NCBI GenBank assembly: GCA_052327205.1
Contig: CM126218.1
Coordinates: 67,952,001-68,016,000 of the forward strand
DNA length: 64,000 nt
Direction: 5' to 3'
Source: Somniosus microcephalus
Lineage: Eukaryota
Each line of letters begins with the position of its first letter. The first letter of the stretch is position 1. Made by a program: the position numbers and the translations under genes. Positions 10,386-40,511 of the stretch are shown piece after piece. The notes beneath the pieces were generated by a model. The model searched no databases. It was given only the letters and a program-made list of their open reading frames with translations, and had not been told where the DNA came from.

Positions 10386-11130
10386 GGGCCAGAAATTCGG
10401 GTCCCCATGGGTGAGTACGCGCTGGGTACTCACGCGTAGGCCCAATGAAAGTGCCGGTTTCGTGCATGCGTGGGAAACCGGAGCTTCCGTTTCCTTAATG
10501 GAAGGGGTTCACAGGTCGAACGCGTGCGCTGGAGGGGCAGCGCGTACGCCTGGAACCTCCGTTTTTTTTGCAGCTTTCTCCGGGAGGGTAAGTCTCCAGG
10601 GGCTACGCTTGTAAAAAGCAGTCGCAAGGCCTGCTTTTAACAAGGTAAGTGGTGAATTAAGTTAAATTAAAACATTTTTCCCACAGGTTTATTATTTTTA
10701 AATACTTTAAAGGTAAGTTTATTTTTAGCCCCGTTAGAAACTGTAAATTAATTTTTCCAAAAATTTAAATTATTGTTTAAAATAGTTATTTTATGTAATT
10801 TAGTTATTTTAAAAATGTGATTTTTTTTTTAAAAATTGACGTTTTAGTGATGTTTTGGGGCTGAATTGTATTCATAGATTTGACAGCTCTTCCTGTCAAA
10901 TCTATGAATACAGATTCCCTGCTACCATTGGCTCTCCATGGCCCACGTGATCCCAGGGGATGCTTCGAACTAACTGCGCCCCTGGGATACGCAAGCACTG
11001 CGCGCCGGCAGTTGGAGGAGGCCCAGGATCGGAATCCCACGCGGGCCCACAGCACAACGGCCGGCGCGCTAGTTAAGTGCAGGTCGAGGGCTTGCACCCA
11101 CAGGAAGCCTCCGACCCGAATTTCTGGGCC
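10386..11130 (+). mobile_element. Non-autonomous Harbinger-type element (MITE)
   Basis: TIRs gggccagaaattcgggtc / gacccgaatttctgggcc and a 3-bp TSD CAT. The TIR resembles that of the 26248 Harbinger. Confidence 0.85.
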
Positions 11131-11168
11131 CATATGTCACCAAAACAAACTACAGGAAACTCTTGTAC

Positions 11169-12165
11169 GATAGCAAAATACTGCAGATGCTGGAAATCCG
11201 AAATAACAACAGAAAATGCTGGAAAAACTCAGCAGGCCAGGCAACATCCGTGGAGAGAAATTAGAGCTGACGTTTCGGGTCGAAACCCTTTTTCCAAGAC
11301 TGGAAAGGAAATAAAATAGATCGAAGTCAGGGCTGCGATAGAACAAAAGAAGTAAAAGAGACATTAAGAGGTATTCCAAACCAGACGAGATGGTAATAGG
11401 ACAGTGGAGACAAGACGGCTGAGATTAGGTGTGAAGTGTACTGGCAGGATGAGACAGAGCTGCCATGTGGGAGAGAGAAAAAAAAAAGGGGGGGGGGGGG
11501 GGGAAGACCCAAAACAAAGGGGTGGAAAAAAATAAGTGTAAACTCTACATTGGGGAGACCAAACGCAGATTGGGTGACCGCTTTGCGGAACACCTCCGTT
11601 CAGCCCGTAAGGGTGACCCCGAGCTTCCGGTCACCTGTCATTTTAATTCACCGCTCCATTCCCACTCGGACCTCACCGTCCTTGGCCTCTTGCATTGTTC
11701 CACGGAAGCTCAACGTAAACTCGAGGAACAGCACCTCATCATCTGATTAGGCACTTTGCAGCCTTCCGGACTCGATATCGAGTTCAACAATTACAGATCA
11801 TAACCTCGGCCCCTATTACATTTTTACTTCTATTTTTTTCCACCCCTTTGTTTTGGGTCTTCCCCCCCCCCCCCCTTTTCCTTTTTTTTTCTCTCTCCCA
11901 CATGGCAGCTCTGTCTCATCCTGCCAGTACACTTCACACCTAATCTCAGCCGTCTTTTGTCTCCACTGTCCTATTACCATTTCGTCTGGTTTGGAATACC
12001 TCTTAATGTCTCTTTTACTTCTTTTGTTCTATCGCAGCCTTGCCTTCAATCTATTTTATTTCCTTTCCAGTTTTGAAAAAGGGTTTCGACCTGAAACGTC
12101 GACTCTAATTTCTCTCCACGGATGTTGCCTGGCCTGCTGAGTTTTTCCAGCATATTCTGTTGTTA
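11169..12165 (+). mobile_element. Penelope-like element: inverted pLTR, GIY-YIG endonuclease 3' fragment and pLTR
   Basis: LYIGETKRRLGDRFAEHLRS...CHFNS...RKLEEQHLI at 11537-11746. About 11205-11535 is inverted relative to about 11828-12165. TGTAC occurs on both flanks. Confidence 0.92.
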
Positions 12166-12774
12166 TACTGTACTCAGTTTCTCTTGAATTTGCTGACACT
12201 GTCCACCTCCTCGATCTCCCTGTGCACGCTGTTCCACTCCTTCATTAACCTTTGTGTGAAGTAGTTAAATCTAAACCAATAGGTTGTACCAAGAAGCATG
12301 TTAAGAAATACAACACTTTCACTTACACTTAGCAATTCAGCCATTCCAAAAATGCACTTAAATGGCAAGGCAGAATTGGGGATTGTTAACTGATGCTGGA
12401 AGTGCATAAAAAATAGTTCTTTGTCTTATAAAACAGTGTCCACAATCTAACCCCAGTCACTAAATCCCTTAGTGGAGAATGCCTTTTATTAAACAAACAC
12501 AAAGAGAATTGTGAGGGTCTGAAATCAATACAGTTACCCTACATTTGACATTCCTGATTTGTGCATCAGCCACAGAGGAATCAGCCTCTGATCTCCAGCT
12601 CTGCTGCTGCATTCACTTCAGGCTGGAGAGAATACCAACAGAAAACTCTAAAGGGGATTGACCTTATCCACAATTATCATCCACTGCAGTCACTCGCTTA
12701 ACATCTAACTGAAGCAGTACCCTGCGACAGGAAAAGGATTTCACATTGTGTCCATGCTCTCACTCTTCTCTGTA

Positions 12775-13660
12775 TGATGATGATTTGTCCATCATTGTCT
12801 CGGATGACAGCCTATGAATTATCTCTAATTAATACAGGTTGTGGTTCTCGTATGTTACAGCAACATGCAAAGTCCGATTTTTCGTAGGGAATGTTTTCCC
12901 ACACACAGGACACTGGATGTCACATTGACCCGAGGTCTGATCTTTCTCTGATTTCCTTTGGGTTCTCTTTTCTTTGGCTAGCTGGATAATACTTGCTTCA
13001 AGCTTTGCTGTGCCATCGTGAATCACCTTTTGCCACTTTTTCCTGTCGCAAGCATCACACTCCCATGTGTCAGTTGAGATGCTACATTTTTTTTTATTGT
13101 TCTGTAAGCAATCCTTATAGCTTTAGAACTGACCACAAGAACATTTACCAAGCTTCAGCTCACTGTTGAATACCTTCTTAGGTAGTCTAGTATCAGGCAT
13201 TCGGACCAAGAGGCCAGCCCACCTTAGCTGCAGTTTTACAATAATTGCCTCCATGTCGAGCATATTTGCTTTTCTGAGGACCTCAAGTGTCCGAAATCTT
13301 GGGCCGCCATCGAATTTGTGATATTTTCAGGCAACCTAGATCGAAGTGATCGAGTTTTCTGATATGGCAGTTGTAAATGGTCCAGCTATCGCACACATAC
13401 TGTTAATATTGGGTGACACATAAGGGGCACTCGGGTGTATAACTGCCATGTACTTCAGACGGACAACGAGGCCAAATTTCCAACAAGCATTCAGAAAAAT
13501 CAATGATGACTTGGAGGTCCTCTTCTGCATGGACACCAAGGGCATAGCCATGAACAAACAAGCTCCCGAACAAGTTCTTCAGAGGTCTTAGTTTTGTACT
13601 GCAGGTTGTAAGTCTTTCTCTTACTACTGTTCGGACCTTGAGAATTACAAATTAGCTTAA
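12775..13660 (-). mobile_element. Degenerate RTE-clade LINE 3' part
   Basis: The minus strand gives ...DRKKWQKVIHDG...QCPVCGKTF..., typical of the RTE C-terminus, and ends in an (ATC)n tail. Confidence 0.75.
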
Positions 13661-13676
13661 CAATGACAGACAAGGA

Positions 13677-14252
13677 TGTGATCAATAAAATTGGTCTTTA
13701 TTCACACTATAGTTCAAAATTCGAGGGTGCATAGAAGCACCTTTGGCAATAAATTCAAAGAACTCTCGGCAACAGATATGCCCACAACTTATTAATTCAA
13801 ACGTACATAAAAGTACCTCCTCAACAATACCTAAACTCTATATCCGACTTTCATACATACGCCTTTATCTCTGGGTGATCGGTCCAGTGAAATTGTAAGT
13901 CGAAACATAGACTGACCAGCTTTCTCAGCTCATTCTTCCTCCTGCTCGGTCTTCTGGGCTTCTTCTGAATCTTGAATCTCCCGTCCCTGGGTTACTTCTG
14001 TTATAGGGCCTTGTCTGCCAGCCTCCGCCGTAAATTACTCTGTGCCTCCCTCTGATGGGTCAGTTTCACTCCAAACCTTCCCTGATTGGAGTTCCTTCCG
14101 CATGACACGTTCCTGTTCCTGTGAGATTTGTGGGGGCGGGACTTCCTTGTCAATCATGTTCTTCCTTCTTGTCCATGTGGCCTCTCAAAGGACCATGCTG
14201 ACCACCAGGCAAAGGACACCCCTGCTGACTTCCACCATTCTGTGTCTTCACA
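13677..14252 (-). mobile_element. Putative solo LTR
   Basis: TGTGA...TCACA ends, with AATAAA just inside the minus-strand 3' end and a TATA-like ctataa upstream. No TSD seen. Confidence 0.45.
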
Positions 14253-15681: not shown

Positions 15682-15726
15682 TCGGCTCTTCAGTCTTGCT
15701 GAAATAATTGGCAGGTACTTCATAAC
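15682..15726 (-). CDS. Putative 45-nt internal exon (VMKYLPIISARLKSR)
   Basis: AG|...|GTAAGA boundaries, phase 0/0 and open reading. The acceptor polypyrimidine tract is weak. Confidence 0.35.
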
Positions 15727-19599: not shown

Positions 19600-20370
19600 A
19601 TTGTATATTTATGTTGTATTCGCTGCTCATAATGCTCTCTACATTCGCAAGACCAAATGCAGATTGTGAGATCGCTTTGCTGAACGCCTCGCCTCCATCT
19701 ACAAGTGCGACCCTGAGCTTCAGGTTGTTTTCCAGTTCAATTCTCCATCCCACTCCCTCTCTGACCTCACTGTCGGCCTTGTACACTGTTCCAATGAAGA
19801 CACAACCTCTAGAAACAGCACCTCATCTTTCTACCAGGCACCTTACAGCCCTCTGGCCTTAACATTGACTTTACGAGGTTCAGACCTTAACCACAGCTTC
19901 CCTTGGCCAGCAGGTGCTGGTAATGTAGGATGGGCGCAGCAGCACTTCAAGGATTGGGGGAGGGAGTGGGCTGGTGCTTCGATCACTACACAGCCAGCGG
20001 GGTGGCCTGCATCCCTGGTGTCACTTGCCTTTTTCTTCCACCCCACTCCCAGGTCACTGGAACCTTCTCAGCGTTGCCAGGTTTTCTATGCTCCCCCTCC
20101 TCCTCTGCTAATCTGTTGTAACCATTCACACATCCTCTGGGTCTCCCATACATCTTTTGTTTCTCTAATTTTGCTCATTATTGTCTTCTTTTGTCTTGCA
20201 CCATTATCACTTCTGTCATTTCGTAGTTCCCAGATCTCCATTTAATTACAGAACATCCTTTTTTTTGCTCCCCATCCCCTTTTCCCTGGTTCTGTTCCTT
20301 CTTATGAGCTGTTCAGCTGTAACACCTCCTGGTTCTGACAAAAGGTCATCGTCCTGAAACATTAACTCTT
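19600..20370 (+). mobile_element. Old, degenerate Penelope-like 3' fragment
   Basis: GIY-YIG remnant (ctctacatt...gaccaaatgcagatt...; gaaacagcacctcatct) and a hammerhead-like pLTR motif at about 20333. Confidence 0.65.
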
Positions 20371-20400
20371 CTCCAGTGGTTCAATATCCTGCATGTAGTA

Positions 20401-22390
20401 CAAAAGCAAAATACTGCAGATGCTGGAAACCGGAAATAAAAACAGAAAATGTTGGAAATACTCAGCAGGCCAGGCAGCATCTGTGGAGAGAGAAACAGAA
20501 TTAACCTTTCAGGTCAATCAATGACCTTTCATCACAACTGGAAAAAGTCGGAAAAGTTCTGATGAAAAGTCATCGACCTGAAACATTAACTCTGGCCGCG
20601 ATTTCACCAGCAGAGGCGGGATCGCAGCGAGAGAGCTGGGTGGCGGGTCCCGGTCCCGTTCCCGGCTCCAGCCTGCTCTCTCCAAGTGATTTTATGTAGA
20701 TTGGGCCTGTTAAGCCCGCCCTGTGCATTTCTCTGCCAATTAAAAGGAAGCGGGTCTGATGACATCATTTGATGACATGTCGTCAGCCTTAAAGGGGCCA
20801 TGTCCACATTCATTTTGACAGTTGTTCTGCAGCATTGAGGTGCTGCAAACACTGACCAGCATTGCACGGCTGCACCCAGGCTCTCGTATGACTCCCTCCA
20901 TATGTTTATGGAGGGAGTCACCGCACGCAGGGAGGTTTCTCTTCCCTTCCCATGGGCGTAAGAGACCTCGCCAGGAGATCCAAGCAGTCTGGTTGCACAA
21001 TGCACAGGAGGACACAGCAGGAATGTCGTCAGGAGGACCAGGCTGCAGTGGCGCAAACCCTTCAATGATCTGAGCAGATCACGAAACGTTACTGCCAAGC
21101 CACACTCAACCTCATCCTGCTGTGCCACTCATCACATCCACATCACTCTGCCTGCCCTACTCCTGCAGATCTTTACTCACACCAACTTACCTGGCACTTC
21201 CACTCATCCCCCTCTATCTACATCATCACTTCCCCATCTCACTAGCCACTCCTCACACTCACCCTCATCCTACTGCAAGCATACCAACTAACAAACAAGG
21301 GTACGCACTGGAGTGGTTTAGCCAATGTTCATGAAGTTTCTGTTAATGTTTTGTCAAATATTGAAATCTATACTTTCAACACTTTACCTTATTGGACAGA
21401 TCTGTGCACACCTTTAGAAGTGTCTTAGTGAGTTCCAGTGAATGCTGAGACATAACTCCCCCCCCCACCAATTGTGATGTATGACAGGAATGGCTTGGAC
21501 ATTATAGGGATGCTTTATGGTGCTGGTGTGGGGTGGTGTCAACCTGGTGCATCATGTGGCAGCCAGGGTGTACAGTGTCAAGTGAAGTAAATCTGGCCAT
21601 GGTGATGCCATCGCTGGCCTCCCGGGCAGCAATGTTGTTGGGTGCTGATGCCCTGTGCAACATCAGGTGATTGCGGAGAAGGTTGGTGTTGCTGTTGGTA
21701 TGCCTGGTGATGTTCGTGCTGGGGCTGATCGTGGAGGGATTCAGAGGACCAAGGTGAGATTTTTTCAAGGGCACCGATGTTGCTGGAATAGATGGCAGCT
21801 GAAGTTGAGATGACAGAAGCGATCTGTCAATGATGAGAGAGCTTGCTCCAAGGAGGTGACAGTGGATAGAGAGTTTGCTCCAAGCACTTCCAAACTGCAT
21901 ACAGCTCAAAGGCATCATCCAAGTTCTGAAAGCTCAAGCTTCTGACATTGGAAAGTGACCAGCTGTGAAATGGTAGCTTTCATACCACTTTTGCAGCTGT
22001 CACCTATTCACAGCAATGGGTAGACAGAGAGAGCCCGAGCTACTTACCTGACATAATTCCCGAGTGACGGGAAGCTTGTTAAAAAAAAAGTGGTAAAATA
22101 GAAATAGGCTGGCAAAATAGTAGTTAACAAGCTTTTAACCATCTTAAATGCCTACCCCGCCGCTTGGTATCAGGTCTGTTCTGAAATCGCAGACTCGACA
22201 CTTTGGAAACTTACATGGAGGCGGGTTCGGAGCGGGTTCCCAACCCGCTGTCAATCATTTCGATTTTGACAGCAGACCCGCCTCCAAACCCGCACTCTGA
22301 GCGCCTGCAAAATTCAGCCCTCTGTTTCTCTCTCCACAGATGCTGCCTGCGCTGCTGAGTGTTTCCAGCATTTGCTGTTGGCATTCCTTT
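20401..22390 (+). mobile_element. Short Penelope-derived inverted-pLTR unit interrupted by a Harbinger derivative
   Basis: An inverted pLTR is followed by a forward pLTR that resumes at 22321. The 8-bp TSD ATGTAGTA lies at 20393 and 22391. Confidence 0.8.
20594..22320. mobile_element. Internally deleted, degenerate Harbinger element
   Basis: 3-bp TSD TCT, imperfect TIRs (ggccgcgattt / aaattcagccc), a Myb/SANT remnant on + (about 20860-21090) and a transposase-like remnant on - (about 21500-21900). Confidence 0.75.
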
Positions 22391-23983: not shown

Positions 23984-24751
23984 GGCCCAGTAATTCCGGG
24001 CACAACGCGTGAGTAAGGACGGGGTACCCACGCGTGTGCCCGGAGGAATTGCTGGTTTTCAGCTTGCACAGCGCATGCGCTGAAAACCGGCATTTCCTGT
24101 CCTCTGACCCAAGGGGTTAAGAGGCAGTACGCGTGCGACTGCACAGGCAGTGCGTGCGCAGTGAAATTCCTTTTTTCCCCCCCACAGTTGTCAGAGTGTA
24201 AAGGCCTCCAGTCTTTACGCGTGGAAAAACCAAACGTAAGTATTTAGTTTTACAGGTAAGTGGGCTTTTAGTACAATGTAGAATTTTTTTTTCCACAGGT
24301 TTGTTATTTTTAAAGAATTTACAGTAAGGTAAGTTTAGTTTTAGACCCTATTTTTAAAAATTTTATTTTTTACAAAAAATTGATTAATTGTTTAAAACAT
24401 TTTTAAAAACTTATTTATAGTTAATATAATCAGTGGGATGTTTTTTAAAATTTTATTTAAAGTTAAAGTAGTGTTTTGGCAGCCCATACTTTTCATGAGT
24501 TTGACAGCTCTTACTGTCAAACTCATGAATGAGTTTCCCCTCCCCTGATTGGCTGCACAGTGCTCACCTGATCCCAGCCGGCACATCGCACTAACTACGC
24601 CGCTGGATCAGGTAAGCACATCGCGCCGACATCTGAACCGGGCCAGTGACAGGAAATGCGAGCAGGCCCAGGCTTCAGATGTCGGCGCGCAGGGTGAGTG
24701 CAGATCGGGGGCTTGCACGCGCGGCAAGCTCCCGATCCTAATTTCAGGGCC
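23984..24751 (+). mobile_element. Non-autonomous Harbinger-type element, diverged relative of 10386-11130
   Basis: TIRs ggcccagtaatt / aatttcagggcc, flanks AAT and ATT, and colinear similarity to the 10386 copy. Confidence 0.8.
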
Positions 24752-26608
24752 ATTGCAATTTAGAACTGGTTCTATCCAATCCTCTAATTAAAGCCTTCAG
24801 TTGGTTTTCTAAGTGGGTACTAATTGTGGACAGACTTGAGATTGAATTTTGCTTTTCTCACTCTTTAGGTAGACAGCACACAAATCAAAATGATCACTGA
24901 GCCATCCAGGGAAACCTAACCATCTCCCCTTCCCCCCCCCCAAAACTATATTATCTGGTGTTACCAGGTTGCCTCTCATTTAAGTGTTAACCAGGCCTGA
25001 TCTTGTTGAGCTTTTGAGATTGGACATTTGCAGAGTAGCGCAGCCACATGCAGATAGGCTTTTGCCCAGATGCGATTACAATGTGCAGCCTACGGATCTC
25101 GAGTCAGACAGGTTACCGTTGTGCTACTTTCGCTAATGTTTCCCCAGTGCCTGCCTATCTGTTTCTAATTATACCAATGTTGCTACACTTGCTATGAAGA
25201 ACAGCTAGCTCACAGCAGGAATCTGGTCCCACTGAAATAAATGCCATTAAAATTTGTACATGAAACAAGCTCACCAAGAGCCATGCTGATTAGAAACCCC
25301 TGTTCAGTTTGAGTGAAGTAACTTTGTATTACAGAATATTAGGAGGTAAAGATAATCCTGGGAGTGAGCTACAGGCTACAATCTAATTGCGGGCTTCAAA
25401 TATCACCAGGTACCTTGAGTGTAAAGCAGGAGTGCTTAATAATTCCAAACCCCTTGATTAGATTTCAGCCTGCAACTCACTCTTGGATGTTCCATTAATC
25501 AAACGAACACAAATCGTGTTATTTTAGTAACGGTCTTCTCTGAATACACTTGAACAATTAGGACGTAAGCTTGGTTCTGTCTTGAACTAGACATTGATGC
25601 AGCTCTTGGAGGGTTAAAGCTCTCTGAAGTGTTGTAGCCCTGGAACGCCCTACTACAAAGGGCTACACAGTCGATGCAGTGCCCTTCATCTTTCACTCAC
25701 TTCGGTAATAATCAGGCACGTCAAAGGAACTGCTCTCCTCCTCTCAGCCACTGCACCAAGTCATTTAACTTTCCAGATGAGGTTTGTGATGGTGAAAAAT
25801 GTTGCAATTACCTTCATCTGTGCAAAGCCGCCTACTCAGCTTCAAACAAATTTCCCCTCTCCGGACAGTCCTGAGTAACTATTATACAGCAATAAGCATT
25901 CCGTTAATAGAAGAAAATGCCACAGGAACAATGGCAATTCAGGAGCTCTCTTCCTCTCACTCCCAAAGATAAGCTGTGGATTTGGCAAATGTTACTGCAC
26001 CACTGTGACAGAACAGATTCCCATTGCAATACACAGGGTTACTGAACATCTGCTCATAAAATATGGCATTTTTTTTTATTGTGCTTCATTTCAGCAAACC
26101 AGATAACATTTCCATGTCAAATACCAGTTGTGACCCCTTATATGTGAGGCTGACTACAAATGAATAAAGTCAGTTTTGGGGAGAGAGGGGAAGATGGAAG
26201 GCAGGAAGGGCTCAGAGTAAAACACAAAACATTTTACAAGGCTCAATGGCCTAGAAATTCAGTATAGCCATGTTTGGGGCGCTACAGCCGGGCGTTCGCT
26301 AAATTTAGCGCCCGGCGCAACTTAGCGCCACCTTCGCTGATATTCAGTTGCATCGCCCCAAGAGGTTGCTGCTGCGCTAAAGCAGGCAATGCACGACTAT
26401 CATAAGGCGCTAAGCCGGCGTGCCGAGGCGCCAACACCGAGGACGGGCGTAGCGCAGGTGCGGCGAGTTGCTGATTGAAGGCAGACACGCTGGCGCCGGT
26501 CAGCTCTTAAAGGGGGAGGGTGGACTTGTTTGGCTGCCACGCCCTGCACACTGCAGCCCTGAATCAAGGCCTGAACATAGCTGCTTCAACAGTTCAACGC
26601 CCACGACT

Positions 26609-28404
26609 ATGGAGAAGGCTAGGGAGCGAGCGCAGCACTTCAGCGAGGGTGCCCTGAAGGTACTGGTTGGCGCAGTGGAGCGCAGGCGACTTGTCCTCTT
26701 CCCTGATAGTGGCAGGAGGCCGCTGCCCAGCAAGTATAGAAAAGCCTGGAGGGAAGTGGCAAACAGGGTGACCTCCAACAGCATGGTTGCCAGGACTCCT
26801 GTGCAATGCAGAAAAAAGTTCAACGACCTCACTCGGGTTGTCAGGGTGAGTATCCTTTCCAGTATCCTCCTCATCCCTGCATATGCACCTCACTTTATGG
26901 CCAAAGGGACCTGAAAGCCCCAATGCCCAGCCCTCATCCAACAGCTATGGGACTCTCATGAAAATCACTTGCACATTCAGCACTTTACACACTGTCAGGG
27001 CTATTCCACCATGGGAGGCAGTGCAGGCAAGATCAGGGCTTGACACTGTCAGGGCTATTCCACCATGGGAGGCAGTGCAGGCAAGATCAGGGCTTGACAC
27101 TGTCAGGGCTATTCCACCATGGGAGGCAGTGCAGGCCAGATCAGGGCTTGACACTGTACTGAGAGGCCATCCTTTCTCTTGCAGGGCAAGCTGGCCCACA
27201 ATCGCAGGCAGCAGCGACGGACCGGGGAGGCCGTCCTGACCTCAAAGAGCTCAGCGACCTGGAGCAGCGTGTGGAGCGCATTATGGCAGGCCAGCTGATT
27301 GGCCCCGTCGCCAGTGGAGATGCCGACCCTGTTCTGGACAGCAATGGTAAGGTCATCACCTTTTTGACCTCTCTCTTTCCACTTGTGCCTCACACCAGCA
27401 TCCTTTGCCACTATCGTACCAATGCAGTGCATAGCAGCACTTATGCCTCCCTCGCTGCCGTCCTGTCCTCACTCTAAAGCAACTCTTGTGCCTCCCTGCT
27501 TTCAGATGCTGAATCGCCAGGTGAGGAGGCGGGCCCTCAAGCTGCCACTGTCAGTGATTCTGAATTCGAGGGGAAGAGGAAGCTGGCCCATCAGTGCCAC
27601 CCTCAGCCGAGGCAGCCCATGGCCATGATGGGGACATGTCTTCCCTGGAAGGGAGCAGGGGGGAAGGGTCTGAGGAGAGTGAAGCTCCGGGGCCCAGCGG
27701 GCTGCAGCAACGCAGGAAGCTCGGCGGCCTTCTCCCCGGAGGGTGAGTGCAGCCTCCAGTCCTGCTACAGTGAGCGTAGAGGAGGTGCGGCTCCTTGGTG
27801 AAATGGGCGCTCAGGCTGAGCGCAGGCACACTGAGCTCATGGCTGCAGTGGCAAGGATGCCTGACCCCATAGAGTCACTGGCAAGGAGTGCTCAGGAATT
27901 CGGGGCAGCACAGGCCAGGAGTCTGCAAGAATTCAATGCAGCACAGGCAAGGAGTCTGCAGGACTTCGCGACAGCCAAGTGCTCAGTCGTGCCATGCATT
28001 CACTGGCTGGTCTGATGCAGACACAAATCAGGGCCACACGGGCACTAACTGCTGCCACCCTCGCTGGGTCGGCCAGGCATCGCCAGGGCCCTCGCCGCGC
28101 CGCAGCAGCCCAGCAGTCTGTGCTTCAGCAGATTGCTGCGTATGCTGCAGTGCTGGCCCGTGCGAGTGCCAGTGTATCAGCCGACCAGGGAGTGCCTGTG
28201 CTCTGTCAGGTTGGCAGCATTCCTGCAGCCAACACTGTCACTCCTCCACTGCAGCTGCCACCACCCGCAGGACAGACTGCTGCCGCCCAAGCAGAGTTGG
28301 AGCAGTCAGCAGCCGGGCCCTCCAGGCCGTCCCCCAAGGGCATCTGCCGTCTCACCCTCAGCAGCCTTCCCCCAGCCTTGCTGCAGCCACTGGGGTCCCA
28401 TTGA
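26609..28404 (+). pseudogene. Harbinger Myb/SANT-like DNA-binding protein gene (3 exons, frameshifted)
   Basis: Exon 1 (26609-26845) reads MEKARERAQHFSEGALKVLV...KAWREVA...RTPVQCRKKFNDL then GTGAGT. Exon 2 (27185-27346) reads KLAHNRRQQRRTG with a 1-nt frameshift in a G run. Exon 3 starts at 27506. The 3' end is approximate. Confidence 0.85.
26988..27157. repeat. 54-bp tandem repeat x3 in intron 1 of the Myb/SANT gene
   Basis: ACACTGTCAGGGCTATTCCACCATGGGAGGCAGTGCAGGCAAGATCAGGGCTTG, near-identical copies. Confidence 0.95.
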
Positions 28405-28504
28405 GGAGGAGCTGCAGGGCGGGAAGGGGCCACTCGCGGAAGCGAGGCGGATCACCCTCGCTGGGGAAAAAGTACACAGTGTGGCCAAATGTTTTTTTTT
28501 ATAT

Positions 28505-28610
28505 ATGAAGGCCGAGAAGGTTTTTTTTAATATATGAAGGCCGAGACTGTTGTGTTTGTTTTTTATGAAGGCCGAGACTGTTGTGTTTGTTTTTTATATG
28601 AAGGCCGAGG
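28505..28610. repeat. Four copies of ATGAAGGCCGAG with T-rich spacers, between the convergent Harbinger genes
   Basis: Directly visible, period about 30 bp. Confidence 0.9.
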
Positions 28611-28872
28611 ATCATGGTCATTTTTGTTTAACTGTTTTTTTCATTTTCTGAAGGTTGAGAGAGCCAGTTATGTCTGACTGTTTTTTGGGGAGGTTTATCT
28701 GAATGAGTTTGTCATGCGGGAAGGGCACAGAGTTTGCACAGTAAAAAAGTTTCTTCAATCACATTGTCCATGTTTGCACTTTGAACTATTTGTTGCCTTG
28801 ACCGGCTGAGGGCTTGCGGAGTGGCTCCATTCATGTTCTTTCAATGGCACAAGCCATTCCCTGAGAGGGGGC

Positions 28873-29957
28873 CTAGAACCAAGTTGCAATAAGCCACCGA
28901 CGGACGGCCCTTGCACTTTGTGCCTCCCTCCCGTCTTGGTGCTCCTCCTCCTCTTCTGGTGGTCCTCCAATGTCTGCTGGCAGTGGCTGAGTCCTGACGA
29001 TAGCCAGGTTGTGCAGCATGCAGCACACTACAACGAAATGGGAGACTCGCTCAGGCGAGTACTGTAGGGCTCCTCCGGAACGATCCAGACAGCGGAACCG
29101 TTGCTTGAGCACGCTGATTGTGTGCTCAATGATGTTCCTGGTAGCTTGATGGCTGTCATTGTATCGCTTTTCAGCAGGGGTGCTGGGCGCACGGAGCGGG
29201 GTCATCAGCCAGGTGCACAAAGGATAGCCTTTGTCCCAAAGAAGCCATCCTCGTGGGTGAGCCTGGGCTTCGAAAATGTCTGCCACAGAATGAAGGCATC
29301 GTGGCTGCTGCCTGGAAAGCGGGCATTGACAGCTAGTATGAGCTGCCTGTGGTCACACACCAACTGGACGTTGAGCGAATGGTAGCCCTTCCGGTTGCGG
29401 TAATCCTCGGCATTCTGTAGAGGTGCCCGCAAAGCCACATGCGTGCAGTCAATGGCACCCTGGACCATGGGGAAGCCCACTATTCCTCCAAATCCCATTG
29501 CACGCTCTTGCTGCTTGTCCAGGGTCATGGGGAAGGAGATGTACTAACGTCTCCTTCTGAAAAGGGCATTGGTCACCTGGCGGATGCAGCAATGTACCGC
29601 GAACTGGGAGATGCTGGCAATGTCCCCAGTAGCGGATTGGAAGGAGCTGGTGGCGTAGAAGTTGAGAGCCACCGCCACCTTCACTGCCACCGACAGAGAC
29701 GTCCTGCTCCTCAGCTGTGGCTGCAGATCTCTGCGAAGCAGGTGGCAGATCTCAGTGACCACCTCCCTTCTGAATCGCAGCCTCCGAACACACTGCTCCT
29801 CAGACATGTTCAGATATGAGAACTGCTGGCGGTATACCCTGGGTGGGTAAGGCCTCCTGTGCTGACGCCTGTTGGCCCTTCTCCGTCTGGCCATGACTGG
29901 CACTCTCTCACGGCGTCTGAGCCCTTTGAATGCAATGCAGTAAGCCAACGTTTCCAC
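28873..29957 (-). pseudogene. Harbinger (HARBI1-like) DDE transposase, disabled
   Basis: Motifs GAIDCTHV, NRKGYHSLNVQLVCD, PGSSHDAFIL, DKGYP and RNIIEHTISVLKQRFRCL. There is an in-frame TAG at 29544-29546 and a frameshifting deletion near 29286. Confidence 0.93.
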
Positions 29958-32900
29958 CCACTGCAGCCCCCATTATATGTGGCGACTCAAGTTAAATCCA
30001 AGTGCAAAGCTCTGGCCTGAAGCACCTCTGCGAGTGCGGAGTCAAACCAGAAAGCTCTCTCCCTTTGTCTCTCTCCAAATATCCATCTCTCACAAAATGG
30101 CTGCCACTTATAATGCAGGAGGAGTCCCCTTTAAATAGCGCCCCCCCCCCCCCGGCGCCCCGTTCCCCATTACCAGTCACTGGGGGCGCCAGGCGCACAG
30201 AAGGGCGGCGCCACTGAAGTTTCGGTTCGGGGCGCACCAAGGGCGTTGCACCATGAAATGACGTCAGGATCTGCGCACGCAGCTGAGCGGGCGCTGCGGT
30301 TTTGCGCCGCCGCTAAATCTTGAGTGAAGTTCGCGAGAGGCGCAGATCGCGCCGTGCCCGGGCGCTAGCCGCTTAGCGCCCCACTTCTCCTCCTAAGGCG
30401 CTAGCGGCTGGCGCTAACAACTGAATTTCTAGGCCAATATGTTCTAGAGATTTAGCCAACTGTACCAAGTTGCATTTGCATAACACTTTCACACAATAAA
30501 ACATTTCAAAGAACTCTATATAGTGGGAATCAGTGGTCATCAGGCACAAGAGGGAGCTAGAAAGGTGATTGTAGTCAAAAAAAAGTGGAGGTTTTGAGGA
30601 GATTCTGAAGGGGAGGTGTGGGAAGGCAGATGTGTACCTGAAATGCAGACCAGTTAACTGAACATCTGCATGGGGGCAGAATTAAGTTTATGATGCAGAA
30701 TGTGATCACTGGTCATCTATGGGGGGAAATGGACCATAACTAGTCAACATGAATTTCACATCCTCAGGATGCCTCAAAGCACTTCACAAACAATTAGTTC
30801 ATTTTGAAGTGTAGTCATTGTTCTTATATAGGCATAGACCAACTAACCTTGTGGCTATGCTTGCAGCTTTTTCCTCCCATCTTATTGCACTAAGTGGTTA
30901 GATGGAAATGGAGTTCGCCATTCATGTAACACTCTGACATGCAACAAAGCCCAGTACTAAAACGGCAAAAGAAAATCACCACAAACATCCGTGTGGAATT
31001 CTTGTTGCACTTGCATTGCAGAGCAAATTTGATATGTGAAGCTATGGGACATATTGCAAGACTGACTCCCTAAAAGCACTCTTGGGAAAACATGTACTCA
31101 CTTACTGCAGGGCAGATCTGACAGCCAGCCTTTAGGGCTCCGAGTACCTTAGTACTTTCTCTCATTGTGAAGAGATGTGACTTGCGTTGTGATGCCACTT
31201 TTCAACAGTCACATTGGGTACTACAAACTCTCTTCTTTCATCCCCCAGCATCTCCCCTCAAAGCAGAGACTCATGCTGGCACAGGCAACCTTGCCCACGC
31301 AACTAATTTGCATATGCGACGAGACAGTGTTGTCAGGCAATTCAACTGTGGAAGGCATCACAGCTCAACCCAATCTCATCCTCACCTAACATCCATGCAC
31401 TCAATTTTAAGCAGAAATGGCTGGATGGAGATCAATATTGGAAACACTGGCTGATGTTTTCCCTCTCTTGTCTGGGAAAAGTGAGGCCACCCACCCAGTC
31501 CAGAATCATCCAAATGAGAATTTTCTCAGCGAGTATACAGTACTTAACACTGATAAATCTAAAGTGTTTGCGATTGGCAACTGCTTTGCTGAATATTTTC
31601 ACTCCATCCACAGGCATGGTCCTGACCTTCCTGCCCCTTCCCACTCTGACCAGCCTCCTTACACTCTTCACAACAAGCTCACCGCAAACATCAGTAACTG
31701 TATGTAGTCTTCCTCCTGGTCTGAACAATGACATCAGCAACTACTGATGGTAGCCATCTCCCCCACCCCCCCCCCCCACCTCTATTGTTCTGCCAGTTTT
31801 TCTCCATTCTGTTCAGCAGTCTGTCCAGTGCCTTTTCACAGCCATAGATGATTATTTTTGGCCATCATCCTTTCATTCCTTCCCCAGTTTTCAAAAGTAA
31901 AATCCCATTCACAGGCCATTAAACCTCAGTGCTGCTCTCTACTGGTATTTAACATATTTGACCTTGCAGCCTTCACCCATTGACCTCTGTTTTGGTCGGA
32001 CCCATAAAGCGTCTCGCCTGGCTATCCATCTTGAAGTTCTGAGGGGTCTCTACCTGAAATGTTAACCTGTCTTCTCTCTCTTTGGACACTACTATGCAAT
32101 TGCCTTTCTTGTAGATAAAATCTGAAATCAAACAGCAGTTTTAAAACAGGTCAGCCGGTCACTGCAGCAAAGCCCCAAATCTCAAACATAGAGGGAGGGA
32201 GAAATCATACAAAACTGCAATTCCCCCCTGCCCCCAAAGTCTCGGTGTTCCTTCTCCGAAAAGGCAACAGCTCCAATCGAGGTACATTTCTACAGGCATC
32301 AGCTGTTCTTTGGTACCTCACCCATATGTGAGTACTTTCTTGTAGGAGTCACTGGACAGTAATGAGGAACAAGATCTCTGGCTGATTTTTCTCCTCCCTA
32401 GCCCCAAGACACTGAGGCCAGTTTTAGCATTGAAACTCTGTAGAGGTGTCTGGATGATGTGATGTTGAAACCATAGCCCTCTATGGAAGGAGAAGCTAGA
32501 TGAGCCTGTTGGCCTCTTGCATGAACTGGTGGCCACGTGAAGATCAGTCCAGTTATTACAGACAGGTCAAACTCGAGGATTCAGATCTATGTGCTTTCAT
32601 TACTATGCGCTTTCATTACTATGCTTGTGTTATCGAGGGAAGCCCATTTAGAGCTTTTTCATGTTTTTTGTCTTGCTGACAGCAATAAATTAGGTCTCAG
32701 GTAGCAAACACCAGTAAAATCTCAAATAGCCACCCAAAGGTTTCTCGATGGAATAAGGAGGCCCGAGATGTTCTGGCACCAACATGTGGCATCATGTCAA
32801 GACACAGTAGCAGCACTCATGATGGCTCATATGAATATAAATTAGAAATCACTACATACCAAATGACCTCAACTGGCAAATTTATCAACAGTTACACAGC

Positions 32901-33385: not shown

Positions 33386-33895
33386 AAGAAAAGAAAGGCT
33401 GAAGCAACTAAACATTTTCATCGATAAAACTGATGGGAGATGTGATACAAGTCTTCAAAATAATGAAAGTAAATAATGAAGTAAACAAGCTATTTAAACT
33501 TGGACAACTGAGCATACAACCAGGGGACACAAAATTCACCAGCCTCAAAAAAATGCGAAGAAAAACTTCATCACTGAACAATGGATATATCGAACAAACT
33601 CCCAGAGAAGGGGAGTTCTGCTGAAAGGTCATCGATCTGAAACATTAACTGTTTCTCTCGCCACAGGTCCTGTTTTAATCCGAGAACGGACTTGATTCAG
33701 GGACAACTGACACCTTTGAGCTGGGTCAAATCCATCGATAAGTGGCCGGGGACAGTGTGCGAGAAGGGCTAGAGTGATATTAACAACACGGCTCGATTTT
33801 ATTCCAGGGGAGTACACGATAGAATCATCGTGCATGGGCTGGAGTTTCTCATGTTATTGTCATCAAAATCTGATACAAGACAAACATATGAAAAG

Positions 33896-34093
33896 CAGAA
33901 TAAAAACAGAAAATGCTGGAAATACTCAGGTCAGGCAGCATCCGTGGAAAGAGAGAGAGTTTGGACGAAAGGTCATCGACCTGAAACATTAACTCTGTTT
34001 CTCTCTCCACAAATGCTGTCTGACCTGCTGAGTATTTCCAGCATTTTCTGTTTTTATTTCAGATTTCCAGCATCTGCAGTATTTTGCTTTTGT
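33896..34093 (+). mobile_element. Minimal (~200 bp) Penelope-derived foldback unit with a central hammerhead-like motif
   Basis: Inverted pLTR end followed by the forward pLTR and tail. The 10-bp TSD ATATGAAAAG lies at 33886 and 34094. Confidence 0.8.
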
Positions 34094-36342
34094 ATATGAA
34101 AAGTGGAAATAAGAGCCGACTAGAATTCAATATCACCTTAAGCAACAATGAAGATTTCTAGAGCATTTTACTGCCAGGAACCGCAAGTTGACAACTTCTG
34201 CAGGTAAACTCTCTACATTCGGGGTGAAGGGATTTGTATTTGATGGTGATGGTCGGAATAAAGTCACAGATAAGCCATGTATGGAAAGGGCACAAGTGGG
34301 ACGTTTTGCTGAAATGTGAAGTTAACCACTACATGAACGCTGACCTCTCGACTAACCATCTGTTTTGTGTGCGTGCAGTGTGGAATATTCTCTAAGCACC
34401 TGCTTCTAATGAAAGCGCCTGTGTAAATAATCGAGGGCATCTCCCTAGGGGTCAGGAATGATTTTAATAAATGTTTGTTTTGCGTCTGTAGAACACAGTT
34501 GGAATAGATGGATAGCTTCATAAAAGGAGCTATATGTAGGGGCTGAGTTGAAGGTTCCAATTGCAAAATTCTGTATCATGCGCAAGATTAAGGCTACTAA
34601 TCCAGGTGCATCGTTGCAGGACTGCATTGCAAGGAACGCCAAGATGAAAAGAGTACTTAAAAGAATAGACAGATAAGCTCAAAGGAAAACTGTAGTCAAA
34701 TGATCTGCACAGCAATTTCACTGACATCAAAGATACAGGAATGGGCACACTACAAGAGAACAATCTCGCCCTCAATCATCCTAGTCTATCTGCTCAGCTG
34801 AAATGAGGAGCCGCTTTGTAAACAGCATTATTTCCACCGCGAGCAAACAAAACCCTGAATCATGTGCCATTCCTGAATGTTAAATTTTCACAACTCCTGG
34901 TCTTTCGCTATACTGTAATTCTCAGAAATTTCAGCACAGAAAGCCTTTTGACCCATGTCCATGCTAACTCCCCATCATAGCCATCTCCTCCAATCTCATT
35001 TCCATACACCTTTTAATATTTTTCTTGGCGTTTATCTAATTCACTCAAATGTCATGATTGACTTGACTACAAGTCACCCGCGATAACATATTCCATATTC
35101 TATTATTGTAATCCTTTGTGAAAAAATGTCTTCCAAACCTCTCCCTTTATTCTTCTAGTACAAATTCTGAATTTAGATTACATCTCTAGTTGTTTTTTTA
35201 TACATAAAAGTCTCATGATTAAAACCAGACACTTTAATACCTGATATCATCCTAGTAATTTCACTCCGCCACCCCACTGCCAGAAAACATCCTCCAGCTA
35301 TTGTGAATTTTTTTCAATGAGCATCTCAAAGTGTTGTGCTCTGCGACGCACTGAATTGCTGATTCCTCATATTATATGGCAGGGTTTCAGCCGATTCATT
35401 TTGTACACAAACTGCAATGTAGTAGTCTACACAATGATTTATTTTAATTCTCTTATAAAGAGGAATATCAACACTCCCTCAGTGCTTCAATTTGGTTAAT
35501 GCTCCACATGTTTTCTTACAAAGCTATAAAGACTGCAAGGGTCTTTGGTTTGAGATGCATTAGATCAGCTGAGGTAGAGTGGAGATGGCATTAAAATAGG
35601 ATTTGAGGGACCCTGGATTGTTTGGGTGGGGGCGGTAAAACCTAACAATAAAGAATCAGTCAGTCATTCAGGAGGATGCAACAGCGAGAGAAAGGTAAGG
35701 GGAAGGGAGATGGAAATATGAAAGCACTTCATCACACTTACTATAAAATTATTTACTTTGAATTGGCAACGACTTATATAGGGAGACACAACATTCATTT
35801 TGCACATTACAAAATACCACAAACAGCAATGAAATGAGTGGCCAGTTTTTCCCAAATAGTGGCATGGGATTTATAGCATCCACCTAAACCACTGGAATAG
35901 GCAGAGAGCGCCTTGGGTTTGTCAGAAGCACAGCTCCTCAAACGATGCTGCACTCTGTACGGAAAGTGCATTGTGTGTCTATGTTGGGCAAGAACAGATT
36001 CAGACTCAGCTTGGCTGCGACTCCTGCATGAACAGCCTGCCCGACATTCACTGTCCTGACTCATGCATGAAGATTGGCCTTATAGAGGAGATACTATAGC
36101 ACGAGTTACCATAGGAGGGAAGAAAATTAGAGAATGGGAAAAAAAATTAACCCTTTGAAAGACCATTTGCTAGACTGATCTGAAAGGGCAAACTCCAAGT
36201 TGCAAACAAACTGCTCAGAAGAGAGTTCAAACACACCACTATTGGGTAGTACAAATTGCAGAACCCTCAACAGCCATCATAACCATGTCAGTTTTTTTTT
36301 TAATTAAAAATTTCTGTTCAACTTCTACTCCTCTTCAGTCAT

Positions 36343-36515
36343 GGGGGTAATTTTGACTTTGTGCGATTGTGTAAAACAGGCGACAGGGAATTGGCAGCCC
36401 ATTTCACATCTCCCTCGATTTTTAGTTCTGTTAAATTAAATGGGGAGAGTTGTTAAATGGGTTGCCGATTTGCTACGACCCATTTTATACTATCACACAA
36501 AGTCAAAAGTCTGCC
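36343..36515. mobile_element. Palindromic MITE (Harbinger-like)
   Basis: ttttgactttgtgcgat...atcacacaaagtcaaaa; the whole element is an imperfect hairpin. TSD CAT. Confidence 0.7.
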
Positions 36516-37249
36516 CATGGTCTATTTCTAGGACAGTTTCTCACAGAGCAGAACCCTCACCCAAGTGGCCATTCTTGGGTATGTTGGTGGGTCGTGTGCC
36601 CACAGGAGGCAGCAAAAGAAATTTTCAAAACATGTATGCATTCTTTCCACAGCAGAAGTTGCTGGATAGTAAGCAGAAACGTGAATAACGGCTGATTTCT
36701 TTTCCACCTCCTTAGCCCAGGCCTGCTGAGGCCAACTGTAGAGCCCCATCTGCCACCCACTAACTCAGTACAGACCAGGAAATGAACATGCCACCTTCTC
36801 GTTAGTGTTGCATAGTACTACACCAGACGGTGCCTCTAGCCAATAGGGAGCCTAACTATGAATATTCAGTGTCTTTGAGCATCTAGCTCTGAGCATTAAC
36901 CTTCAGTTTTTTTTTATCATTTCAGATGAAGAAATTTCAAAGCAAGTGTTTTCCATTTAATGTGAGGTAGCAGATGGTGATGTCACACCACTTGCTGCGG
37001 TTGGCTAAAGAACATAGGGAAACGACAATACAAACATAGGCTCCTCTTTTTAAAAAAAATTGATTCCATAAAACAGGATTATGCTGGTAATTAAACAGAA
37101 GATGTGTTAACTACCGTCCTGCGCGCTGCTGAAAGCAGACGACAGCTCCCAGGGAGCTAAAACGAGCGGCCAGCCTGCCCGCCTCAGCTGCTCTCACCGC
37201 CTAGACTGCGGATAGGCTGGTAAAATTCAGTCAGGTTTTGGTTAAACTA

Positions 37250-37898
37250 ATACAAAAAGAAAATACTGCAGATGCTGGAAATCTGAAATAAAAACAGAAA
37301 ATGCTGGAGATACTCAGCAGGTCAGGCAGCATCTGTGAAGAGAGAAACAGAGTTAACGTTTCAGGTCGATGACCTTTCGTCAGAACTGGAAAAAAGCAGG
37401 AAATGGAACAGATTTTTAAGCAAGTGTAAGGGCTGGGAAAGGGGGGGAGGGGATGAAAGAACAAAAGGGAAGGTCTGTGATAGAATAGAAGGCAGGAGAG
37501 GTTAAGAGACATTAAGAGATATTCAAGGCAAAAGGAGATGGTAATGGGACAGGTTAAGAAACAAAGGATGGCTCTAGATGAAGTGTGAATTGCGCTGGCA
37601 GAATGAAAGACAGCTGCCCTGTGGGAGAGAAGAAAAAAAAGACAGACAAAAAGTGTGGATAAAAAATGTGATAGGGGCCGAGGTTATGATCTGAAATTGT
37701 TGAACTCTATGTTGAGTCCAGAGGGCTGTAATGTGCCTAATCAAAAGATGAGGTGCTGCTCCTTCAGCTTACGCTGAGCTTCCGTGGAACAATGCAAGAG
37801 GCCGAGGACAGCGAGGTCTGAGTGGGAGTGGAGCGGAGAATTAAAGTGACAGGCAATCGGAAGCTCAGGGTCCCCCTTACGGGCTGAACGGAGGTGTA
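37250..37898 (-). mobile_element. Penelope-like 3' fragment (GIY-YIG C-terminus and pLTR)
   Basis: Reverse-complement homology to 11590-12165. TSD TAAACTA at 37243 and 37899. Confidence 0.88.
37348..37389 (-). ncRNA. Minimal type I hammerhead ribozyme motif in a Penelope pLTR
   Basis: ccagtt-CUGACGA-a-AGGUC(auc)GACCU-GAAA-CG-UUA-acucug: intact core, helix II and palindromic AACGUU helix III. Confidence 0.8.
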
Positions 37899-38037
37899 TA
37901 AACTAGGGCTATGTTTGAATCAGGACTTCCATAAACTGAAAATTAAACAGCATATTTGCAAATCATTCAGCAATTTCACTCAAAACAAAATTCAAGCCTA
38001 CCAAAGGGATTAGGTTTTTAAAATGCTCCCCTCCTTG

Positions 38038-38152
38038 TAGATCAAACTCCTTCCATTTACCCCACTATAGAATCCCAATAGACAAACTCTTTCCATTTAC
38101 CCCATTGTATAGAATCCCAATAGATTAACTCTTTCTATTTATCCCCATTATA
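38038..38152. repeat. Imperfect ~41-43 bp tandem repeat x3
   Basis: taga..aactc.ttccatttacccca.tatagaatcccaa repeated. Confidence 0.8.
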
Positions 38153-38233
38153 GCATTCCTAATGTCAAGTAAAAAAAAAGTATTTCATTCTTGTGTTTAA
38201 ATAGTCCAGACACGAGCTTCACAGAAACACAAT

Positions 38234-40511
38234 GGCCCAGAAATTCCAGAACGGGGCTTGCAGCGCGTGCAAGCCCCGTATTTACACTTACCCCGCGCTA
38301 CTGCCGATCAGCTCCAGGGACGCCTGGAATTGGTGTTTCCAGAAGAAGAATCCCGGGCAGCGTATGACGTCACGCCGCCCAGGAGTGCAGCCAGCGCGAA
38401 GTCAGGAGTGTGCAGTGCAAGTGAGACTCGCCCCTTGAGGTCTCAGTTTCACTGGACACGCCCCCATGTTTCTGTCAAGCTGCTAACCATTTTTACATGC
38501 AAAGCAGCAGTTTAAATAGGTTTTTGGAAGTTTTTTGAAGATTTTGGTAACTTTCATAAACTTTTTAAAATGTTTACATTATTTTGAGTAATCTGAAGTA
38601 GTTTTAAAGAGAATTAAAGCAATTTAAAGACTTTTAAAAGCCCTAAAAGAATTTTTTAAATTCCATTTATTTATTTAGCAATGTCGTCGTCATACGTGTC
38701 TTCACACTGTTCCCTTTGGGGAACTGTATGAAGTGGTGGAAGGATTTATGGCCATGATTAACGCTCATTCCGTGACCGTAACCATCTTTGAACCAGCCAT
38801 TAGGGCGGTTAGTCCTATGGCGGGAGGGTTTTACGGGCTCCCACAAGCTATACAAGGAGGGGGGGCCACCCACACCCACGGACGCAAATATCCCACTGGA
38901 TGTCAACCCAGAATTTAGAGCCGGAGCTCCGACTCCACTTGCCGGGACTGTCTGGAGCGGGGTTCGAAACCCTACCCTGATCTGGCCCAGCGGCGGGGAT
39001 CCTACCGCTATGACAAAGGCCCAATCCGATTAGCAACGTGAAATGGCAGCATAGGGCTCCAGTCACGGGGAGGGAAAAGGCGCAGGAAACGTATGGGTGT
39101 CACCTTTTGTGCGGAGTGGGCCTTTCGCGTAGCAGTAAGCATCCCCGCCACTGGGCCAGAAGGAGTAGGGTTTTGAACCCCACTCCAGACAGTCCCGGCA
39201 AGTGGAGTCGGAGCTCCAACTTTAAATTCTGGGTGGACATCCAGCGGGATGCTTGCGTCCGTGGGTGTTGGTGGCCCCCCCCCCTCAGATGGGTTGTGGG
39301 AGCCCGTAAAACCCGCCCGCCATAGGACTAACCACCCTAATGGCTGGTTCAAAGATGGTTACGGTCATGGAATGAGCGTTAATCACGGCCATAAATCCTT
39401 CCACCACTTCATACAGTTCCCCAAAGGGAACAGTGTGAGGATACGTACGATGATGACCTCTTGCGCAATGCACCTCCTTGGACCCTCAGTCGCAGATGCG
39501 AGGGGGCAAGTTGTGCAATTGTTAAATTTTTTATTTTATTGACATGTAAAATGTTGGCCCAGTAATTCCCTTCCAAATGCGCTAGTACGGTCGGGGTACT
39601 TACGCATCTGGCCGGATGAAATGCCGGTTTTCAGCATGCACAGTGCATGTGGGGAAAACCGGCATTTCCTGTCCTCTGAACGAAGGGGTTCAGAGGCAGA
39701 ACGCGTGCGACTGCACAGGCAGCGCGTGCGCAGTATAATTCGCCGCTTTCATTAATGCTTTCAGTGAGGTCCAGTCATTACAACTTACACATGAAAAAAG
39801 CATGGGTACAGTTGCTCCAGAGGCTGCGGAGGAAGATATTTCTTATCGTGGAGCTTCTGAAAGTATGTATGTCTGTATATATTCCTTTGCGTGTTATGTA
39901 TATATTCCTTTACTTATGTGTATGAATGTATTATTTAATTATGACTTTCAGAGAAAGTAACTTATTGGAAAATCATAATTAAAAATATACATTCATACAC
40001 ATTAGTAAAGGAATATAAAACATACATACATATACGTAAAGGAATATATGTGGACATACATACATAACTCATTCTCACATTCCATTCACACAGCCACAAT
40101 TGCTCCTTCTACCTACCCTTCTGAAAACCCGTTTAAAAAAAAAAAAATTAAAGTTTAAAAATTAGTTAAAATTTCTTAAAATAACTTCCCTCCCTTTCCC
40201 AAACCTAAATATTGCATTTCATAAGCTCCTCCATAAAATATATCTCCTTCCCCAGCCAATGAACAACTTTACACTTGCTTTTTTTAAGTGCAAGTTCTAG
40301 GGACTTACCCTCACTGAATCCATCAGTGAAATCTACAAAGTTCACTGCGCAAGCGCTGCCTGTGCAGTCGCACGCGCTGTGAATAGACCTCGGGTCTGGA
40401 AATGCCGGCGTTCCCCGCATGCGCTGTTCCTGCTGAACGCCGGCATTTCCAACGGCCAGATGCGTGAGTAACCCGACCGTACTCATGCTTCTGGCCTGGA
40501 ATTTCTGGCCC
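38234..40511. mobile_element. Compound Harbinger-TIR element or cluster with nested foldbacks
   Basis: Left TIR ggcccagaaattccag (38234), a second TIR at 39556, and right TIR ctggaatttctggccc (40511). It is unclear which left end pairs with the right end. Confidence 0.6.
38683..39457. repeat. Long inverted repeat with ~346 bp arms and an ~80 bp spacer
   Basis: 38683-39029 is the reverse complement of 39112-39457. Many of the mismatches fall at CpG sites. Confidence 0.95.

Follow-up and report, generated by a model that had tools for sequence, protein, structure and literature searches.

How can the stems of a non-coding transposon remain paired while their sequence drifts from copy to copy? 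This question is raised by a 64,000-nucleotide stretch of the genome of Somniosus microcephalus (assembly GCA_052327205.1, contig CM126218.1, positions 67,952,001 to 68,016,000 of the forward strand), here called the window, which contains diverged copies of a Harbinger-type MITE (miniature inverted-repeat transposable element) rich in hairpins. An initial annotation, made from the sequence alone, had proposed that these hairpins are preserved by compensatory changes, that the fold is functional as single-stranded DNA or RNA, and that arm-to-arm template switching is the neutral alternative. The paired changes in the stems do exceed chance, and their causes are weighed here.

Three whole elements and one partial element (c1 to c4) have a 12-bp terminal inverted repeat (TIR) in common, of which c4 shows one end only. 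All coordinates are those of the window.

10386..11130, plus strand: MITE copy c1, 745 bp, with 12-bp TIRs and flanks CAT/CAT.
23984..24751, plus strand: MITE copy c2, 768 bp, with flanks AAT/ATT and an empty site in a second species.
39556..40511, plus strand: copy c3, 956 bp, a foldback whose palindromic centre lies between two diverged left ends, with flanks GTT/ATT.
38234..38682, minus strand: partial copy c4, a right end with TIR, an AAT flank and hairpins at 38251-38279 and 38408-38459.

Where the initial annotation listed four copies or ends, its coordinates hold but its count does not: the ends at 39556 and 40511 belong to a single foldback, which leaves three elements, and the right end at 38234 (reverse) lies beyond those it listed. 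Over their full length c1 and c2 are 67% identical, and in both the left end is unlike the right end; the arms of c3 are 74% alike across approximately 307 bases. The ORF list contains no open reading frame (ORF) of at least 120 amino acids inside the MITE copies. Copy c4 is interrupted at 38683-39457 by an inverted repeat with 293-base arms that are 91% complementary, and its left part was not found beyond this insert and c3, where scores stayed within those of shuffles.

The hairpins on which the argument turns are the following.

10867..10912: hairpin A of c1, a 20-bp perfect stem (20/20 Watson-Crick).
24492..24529: hairpin A of c2, a 16-bp perfect stem (16/16), three adjacent pairs of which differ from c1.
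39618..39668: hairpin B in the left foldback arm of c3, TT/AA version, 15/15 pairs.
40397..40451: hairpin B in the right foldback arm of c3, CG/CG version, 17/17 pairs, with the same version in three contigs of sequencing run X1.
10400..10644: left-end hairpins of c1, namely H1 (10400-10443), B (10447-10488), H4 (10521-10548, with its own outer stem) and H5 (10608-10644).
10939..11116: right-end hairpins of c1, namely H6 (10939-10998), H7 (11000-11069) and H8 (11082-11116).
23995..24158: left-end hairpins of c2, namely H1 (23995-24044), B (24044-24098) and H3/H4 (to 24158).
24560..24737: right-end hairpins of c2, namely H6 (24560-24619), H7 (24621-24690) and H8 (24703-24737).

All stems of hairpins A and B that the initial annotation quoted were found in place, with exact pairing. 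The consecutive stem-loops that it reported in the first ~200 bp are likewise present, but they are not limited to that part and reach the right TIR; on folding, the string of stem-loops spans the element from TIR to TIR and is weakest in the AT-rich centre, whose helices are mostly not carried over between c1 and c2. Each of c1, c2 and c3 holds 6-10 hairpins of score at least 9, versus 0.1-0.2 in 40 dinucleotide shuffles, and 18 of the 27 hairpins of score at least 10 in the 64-kb window fall inside the 2,918 MITE bases (6.2 per kb versus 0.15 elsewhere). When folded as DNA, with Watson-Crick pairs only, the two strands give z -8.0/-8.0 for c1 and -13.2/-11.7 for c2, with -7.6/-7.1, -6.3/-6.8 and -3.8/-5.4 for the other MITE pieces; the ends of a coding Harbinger in the same window (26248-30435, described below) fold no better than shuffles (z -0.5 to -1.9). 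Outside the MITEs, a perfect 14-bp hairpin with a 4-base loop lies at 20889-20920.

The covariation data comprise five arm sets from one window plus 40 of the 202 variable places that sequencing runs show on c2, all of them individual copies and not subfamily consensus sequences. A hand-curated count, with registers and gaps set by hand, covers 8 stems, 114 columns and 338 cells (286 paired), with two to four sequences per stem and copy pairs that are not independent; it omits H3, H5, the AT-rich centre and the hairpin A and H7 regions of c4, where partners or registers differ between copies, so that c4 enters through H8 only. These eight stems contain 17 double substitutions (9 transitions and 8 transversions) together with two paired one-base deletions, versus 1.5-3.3 in neutral simulations from a perfect stem at the stem rate and 3.2-6.6 at ~30% divergence (P <=0.0012). 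Across four arms, 31 patterns are concerted, 13 go by side and 1 is crossed. The changed columns cluster, with 6 adjacent versus 2.8 expected (P 0.035). Hairpin A has three adjacent changed pairs, and hairpin B has two between the left and right arms of c3. Automatic counts agree, though more weakly. With c2 helices read in c1, 16 of 200 are compensated (expected 5.6-8.4, P 0.011), 64 being one-sided and 10 doubly broken; with c1 helices read in c2, the figure is 12 of 197 (expected 4.4-6.6, P 0.035), and six comparisons of left ends give one to three compensated each (P 0.034-0.78). A pair-count tool returned 9 of 45 and 8 of 60 pairs, reached by 0 of 500 shuffles in each case, although structures taken from the same sequences bias this count upward. 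The proposed covariation is real, its excess appearing in curated and automatic counts alike. Partners are also exchanged, as a stretch that pairs upstream in c2 and in the left arm of c3 pairs downstream in the right arm of c3 and in c1, with new small hairpins adjoining.

Sequencing runs place these copies within a large family. Four of 21 candidate runs were used, placed on c2 at 80% likeness; in run X1, 11,447 contigs lie on c2, at a depth thousands of times that of the flanks, which is not a copy count. Arms of c1 type and c3 type recur in many reads or contigs, as loose ends of placed sequences, and one contig of run X11, from another species, skips 771 bases at the c2 site (768 + 3) and so marks it as empty. 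Nine of the 40 variable places shown fall in defined stems, and at six of these (24016, 24028, 24053, 24151, 24621 and 24730) the common or dominant letter of the family restores a pair that is missing in c2. As the common letters mostly restore pairs, pairing appears to be mainly a subfamily trait, with parked copies decaying one side at a time. Another subfamily differs directly after hairpin B: at place 24097, sequences of runs X11 and X21 continue into another 12-bp hairpin, a perfect one that carries the core of hairpin A in opposite order, so that families seem to swap hairpin modules. In the second species, no part of c2 is covered more deeply than hairpin B. Exact-pattern scans for hairpins A and B gave no match in metagenome contigs or viral contigs.

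The copies are much-repeated non-coding MITEs of Harbinger type, belonging to the PHIS superfamily in the wide sense. Their assignment to a Harbinger-TIR family, already made in the initial annotation, is borne out by the TIRs, by a 3-bp target duplication and by a TIR in common with a coding element that encodes DDE_Tnp_4 and Myb/SANT proteins. The duplication is of A-W-T type. The flank pairs CAT/CAT, AAT/ATT and GTT/ATT differ by one base in two of three cases; an ANT-type flank (AAT or ATT) is present in c2, on the right side of c3, in c4 and in the coding Harbinger, while c1 has CAT. PIF/Harbinger in the strict sense is defined by a TWA duplication, and the Pangu group by an ANT duplication and the lack of a Myb ORF (Han et al. 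2015, PMC4482050). TWA occurs in none of the five flanked end sets, which have AAT, ATT or CAT instead, and the strict definition does not apply. The ANT duplication and a TIR of 11-40 bp starting with GG are shared with Pangu; in contrast, the second Pangu ORF is motif-less, whereas that of the element here is Myb/SANT, next to a HARBI1-like transposase, and no vertebrate host is listed for Pangu (PMC4482050). Given the A-W-T duplication and the Myb/SANT partner, the family fits PHIS but no published PHIS group exactly. The 2-bp AT duplication of ISL2EU suits c1 and c2 by eye; however, it is ruled out by the empty site of 768 + 3 and is further contradicted by the coding element, which has AAT/AAT flanks and a Myb/SANT ORF rather than YqaJ.

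The coding element went unmentioned in the initial annotation, even though it has its TIR in common with the MITEs.

26248..30435: autonomous-type Harbinger, 4,188 bp, with the same TIR start, AAT/AAT flanks, two convergent genes (broken) and TAGCGC repeats at its ends.
26453..26914, plus strand: Myb/SANT-like DNA-binding ORF, first coding stretch (PF13873, E 2.8e-9).
28873..29972, minus strand: HARBI1-like DDE transposase in two pieces, with an in-frame stop and a frameshift (PF13359, DDE_Tnp_4, E 8.7e-19).

All 25 relatives of the transposase among the matches listed at E <=1e-30 are putative nuclease HARBI1 of sharks and rays, 46-74% identical, which makes an elasmobranch the likely source of the window. 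As a direct parent of the MITEs this element was rejected: beyond the TIR, c1-c3 share no 7- or 8-mers with it above background, and the end motifs differ; c4 compared with its ends gives 50 versus 33 7-mers, which are AT-rich. With only the TIR in common, the coding copy is probably not the parent but a sister family of the source of the MITE, as far as sequence comparison goes. The Myb gene carries, in what is likely an intron, a 54-bp tandem triplication (26989-27157). A second Harbinger transposase remnant is found at 50574-51637; over 300 bases its likeness to the first is 77%, and an element may end at ~51637. A survey reports no Harbinger in elephant shark and calls for a check of other cartilaginous fishes (PMC9179366).

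What, then, makes the two arms change together? The explanation favoured here, to which an even chance is given, is that the arms change together through template switching from one arm to the other, which would take place in mobile lineages and around inverted motifs that bind protein. The MITE would be moved in trans by a Harbinger transposase and a Myb/SANT protein, probably from a sister family of the 26248 element. Invariant stem parts (GTRAGT in H1 and H6, CGCGTGCG in H4) would be putative repeated protein-binding motifs, held by sequence, that seed palindromes. During re-synthesis of a mobile copy, whether by donor-gap repair or replication, the new strand may fold on these near-palindromes and one arm may template the other; such copying would fix or erase a mismatch in one step and occasionally build a new hairpin or a whole foldback like c3, while parked copies would decay a single base at a time. 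Adjacent blocks, transversions, paired indels and partner switching are the signature expected of copying at free positions. The template switching named as the neutral alternative in the initial annotation fits better than an RNA fold. Published accounts have template switching both making and mending stems in a single step, and possibly preserving them where selection is absent (PMC5453318, PMC8794818), and it has been proposed for the birth of foldback MITEs in gap repair (PMC3814204), which suits c3. The motifs themselves are enriched: GTRAGT occurs 5, 5 and 4 times in c1, c2 and c3, versus 0.4-0.7 expected (P 0.003-0.013), and CGYGYRCG is enriched in c1 and c3. Hairpins H1 and H6 contain GTRAG as inverted pairs, a C-A mismatch shared by the H6 copies falls on the R, and a near-palindromic motif is directly repeated in H4. 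Binding to terminal or subterminal DNA is known for the Myb-like proteins of Harbingers (PMC13668399, PMC2836001), and the GTRAGT and H4 motifs are plausibly candidate sites of the Myb/SANT protein. For a likeness of GTRAGT to the motif of human MSANTD3 no paper was found, and it carries no weight here. If the motifs are held by sequence, both the invariant columns and the shared mismatches would be accounted for, and it is to such a motif constraint that the shared mismatches are ascribed.

Several observations weigh against arm copying. The imperfections shared in H4, two G-T pairs and a bulge, are present in 4/4, 3/4 and 3/4 copies and were never perfected, nor was the shared C-A of H6 in 2/2 copies, which means that copying is not unchecked. 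Unpaired cells make up 52 of the 338 in the stems; parked copies are thus not visibly repaired, and one has to suppose that copying is faster in mobile lineages. Homogenization has not reached the long arms of c3 (74%). Two of the six left-end comparisons show no excess of compensation (P 0.36 and 0.78), and three of the nine variable places in stems (24000, 24002 and 24128) go the other way, the common letter undoing a pair present in c2. Excision sites of PIF/Harbinger elements are usually rejoined precisely, in 109 of 110 cases in yeast (PMC2836001), which speaks against gap-repair synthesis as the usual route. Lastly, most of the patterns ascribed to copying would also be expected under selection on a DNA fold.

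That selection is the closest rival: the hairpins would be selected as DNA structure, single-stranded or cruciform, with folding copies excised, paired or duplicated more often and founding new subfamilies. Such a reading is possible, though tentative. Tiling is kept at both ends and in part of the centre through 33% divergence, lost hairpins are replaced by new ones, subfamily letters pair while parked copies decay, a cruciform would be in keeping with the almost exclusive Watson-Crick pairing of both strands, and a model of replication by fold-back has been put forward for Angel, a MITE of fish (cited in PMC5172404). However, the coding Harbinger moved with unstructured ends, so that such chemistry works without folding; the hairpins are free to vary in loop length, register and partner; and adjacent triples, transversion doubles and paired indels require two matched hits unless the arms are copied. 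A stronger form, in which the MITE multiplies via a folded single-stranded or cruciform stage and selected hairpin tiling raises its duplication or capture far above that of the coding element, is rather doubtful.

Alternatively, the stems might be nothing but inverted binding sites of a dimeric Myb/SANT-transposase complex, read in double-stranded DNA with no folding. The enrichment of GTRAGT and CGYGYRCG, the inverted GTRAG pairs of H1 and H6 with the H6 C-A on R, and the terminal or subterminal binding known for Harbinger Myb-like proteins (PMC13668399, PMC2836001) all suit such sites, and the direct repeat in H4 would explain its G-T pairs. Yet the paired changes sit at variable positions, where site recognition would allow the arms to drift, and covariation extends to at least eight stems that are unrelated in sequence. 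Predicted binding would hence account for the invariant positions and not for the covarying ones, and as a full explanation it is improbable.

A further possibility is that a structured RNA is transcribed from the element and that selection acts on its fold, as one half of the proposal in the initial annotation had it. RNA folding gives z -10.5 to -19.9, the two G-T pairs shared in H4 are on the plus strand, GTRAGT, which is splice-donor-like, favours the plus strand by 9 to 1 in c1 and c2, and family reads occur in both of the RNA-seq runs used. These runs were chosen by species label, and 2,164 and 8,310 of their reads were placed on c2. RNA helices are generally taken to compensate by way of G-U (PMC8794818), a route closed to transversions and paired indels, and 8 of the 17 double substitutions here are transversions. 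Nor was the strand bias that G-U pairing would leave recovered, as single-copy mismatches on the plus strand comprise 6 G-T, 11 A-C, 20 others and 3 bulges (P 0.33), with G-T to A-C at 14:11 and 9:7 in the automatic counts. The shared wobbles disagree on the strand (two G-T in H4 on the plus strand, one C-A in H6 pointing to the minus strand), the better-folding RNA strand is plus in c2 and minus in c1, and the two strands fold about equally. RNA reads likewise lie on both strands, first mates being plus in fractions of 0.58 and 0.64 overall and of 0.35-0.84 in single bins, from libraries of unrecorded strandedness, and approximately half of the placed reads continue into unlike flanks. No sharp transcript end was seen at the TIRs in the two runs, and no GT-AG joint was present among 10,474 RNA reads, none of the 5 joints listed being a GT-AG skip, although splicing to host exons could hide among 636 further loose ends. 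Reads on both strands, unlike flanks and the lack of sharp ends form the pattern of passenger transcription from scattered copies. Rfam gave nothing at gathering score in the window; for c2 there were three weak hairpin-type matches, far below it. The RNA reading is not supported and has a slim chance at most; the MITE is most likely not an RNA gene. A conserved block in the AT-rich centre (24287-24348 in c2, plus strand; 10676-10732 in c1), also matched by contigs of the second species, consists of an acceptor-like CACAG, 26-30 bases and a donor-like AG-GTAAGT. As for an artefact of hand-picked stems and few sequences, it is scarcely credible: the stems were picked for pairing, sequences per stem are few, automatic P values are modest and the pair-count structures lean toward covariation, but the changed pairs lie inside perfect 14-17-bp stems between invariant pairs, concerted patterns outnumber crossed ones by 31 to 1, and three counting methods agree.

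Among known systems, the Tourist-like MITEs of PIF/Harbinger (PHIS), such as mPing and Harbinger3N_DR, are similarly short, non-coding and highly repeated, with a TIR starting with G, a 3-bp duplication, and likeness to a two-gene element (DDE plus Myb/SANT) that is limited to the TIR (PMC2836001, PMC13668399). The present family is set apart from them, by description, through its A-W-T rather than TWA duplication, its length of ~750-950 bp and its many separately compensated hairpins. Angel of zebrafish, Goblin, Hairpin and Cele7 are likewise non-coding and palindromic, and fold-back synthesis or template switching has been proposed for their origin (PMC5172404, PMC3814204). Copy c3 is a foldback of this kind. 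MITEs of the Angel type form one long palindrome, whereas the two ends of c1 or c2 are unlike and consist of local hairpins in series; c3 combines perfect local hairpins with long arms that differ at a quarter of their length. Angel is said to keep its structure through deep divergence. Stem mutation by template switching (Loytynoja and Goldman 2017; Monttinen and Loytynoja 2022) resembles the changes seen here in its multi-base compensation, perfect Watson-Crick stems and one-step hairpins; as described in those papers, however, it consists of rare events in human DNA and RNA genes, whereas here it would be the prevailing mode along a transposon. Palindromic and foldback MITEs are already known. 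The literature searched gave no description of a Harbinger-type MITE from a vertebrate along which many hairpins are compensated separately, although Repbase or Dfam may hold the family.

The remainder of the window contains other repeats. A dispersed family, often in inverted pairs, occupies 7896-8537, 11163-12166, 20331-20607, 33614-34103, 37231-37897 and 44660-45648; it resembles Penelope-type retroelement ends with hammerhead-like motifs, and Rfam gave no hit to it at gathering score. By eye, CR1-like reverse-transcriptase ORFs of long interspersed nuclear elements and a Gypsy-like gag-pol stretch of a long terminal repeat element are present at 47785-49587 (minus strand), 41663-43474 (plus strand) and 62031-63999 (plus strand). 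A tandem array with a 25-base unit lies at 627-1203.

The family touches two old questions: what leads MITEs to retain secondary structure, and whether stems can persist through template switching by itself, in the absence of selection. With many subfamilies, very many copies and approximately ten separate stems per element, and with coding relatives and parked copies that lack upkeep as a built-in control, it is a good test bed for copying versus selection. For those who search for RNA genes it is also a warning that strong covariation can arise without strand bias or a discrete RNA. Were the MITE to multiply via a folded stage, doubtful as that is, DNA shape independent of sequence would count, in a vertebrate transposon, as a fitness trait that is inherited.

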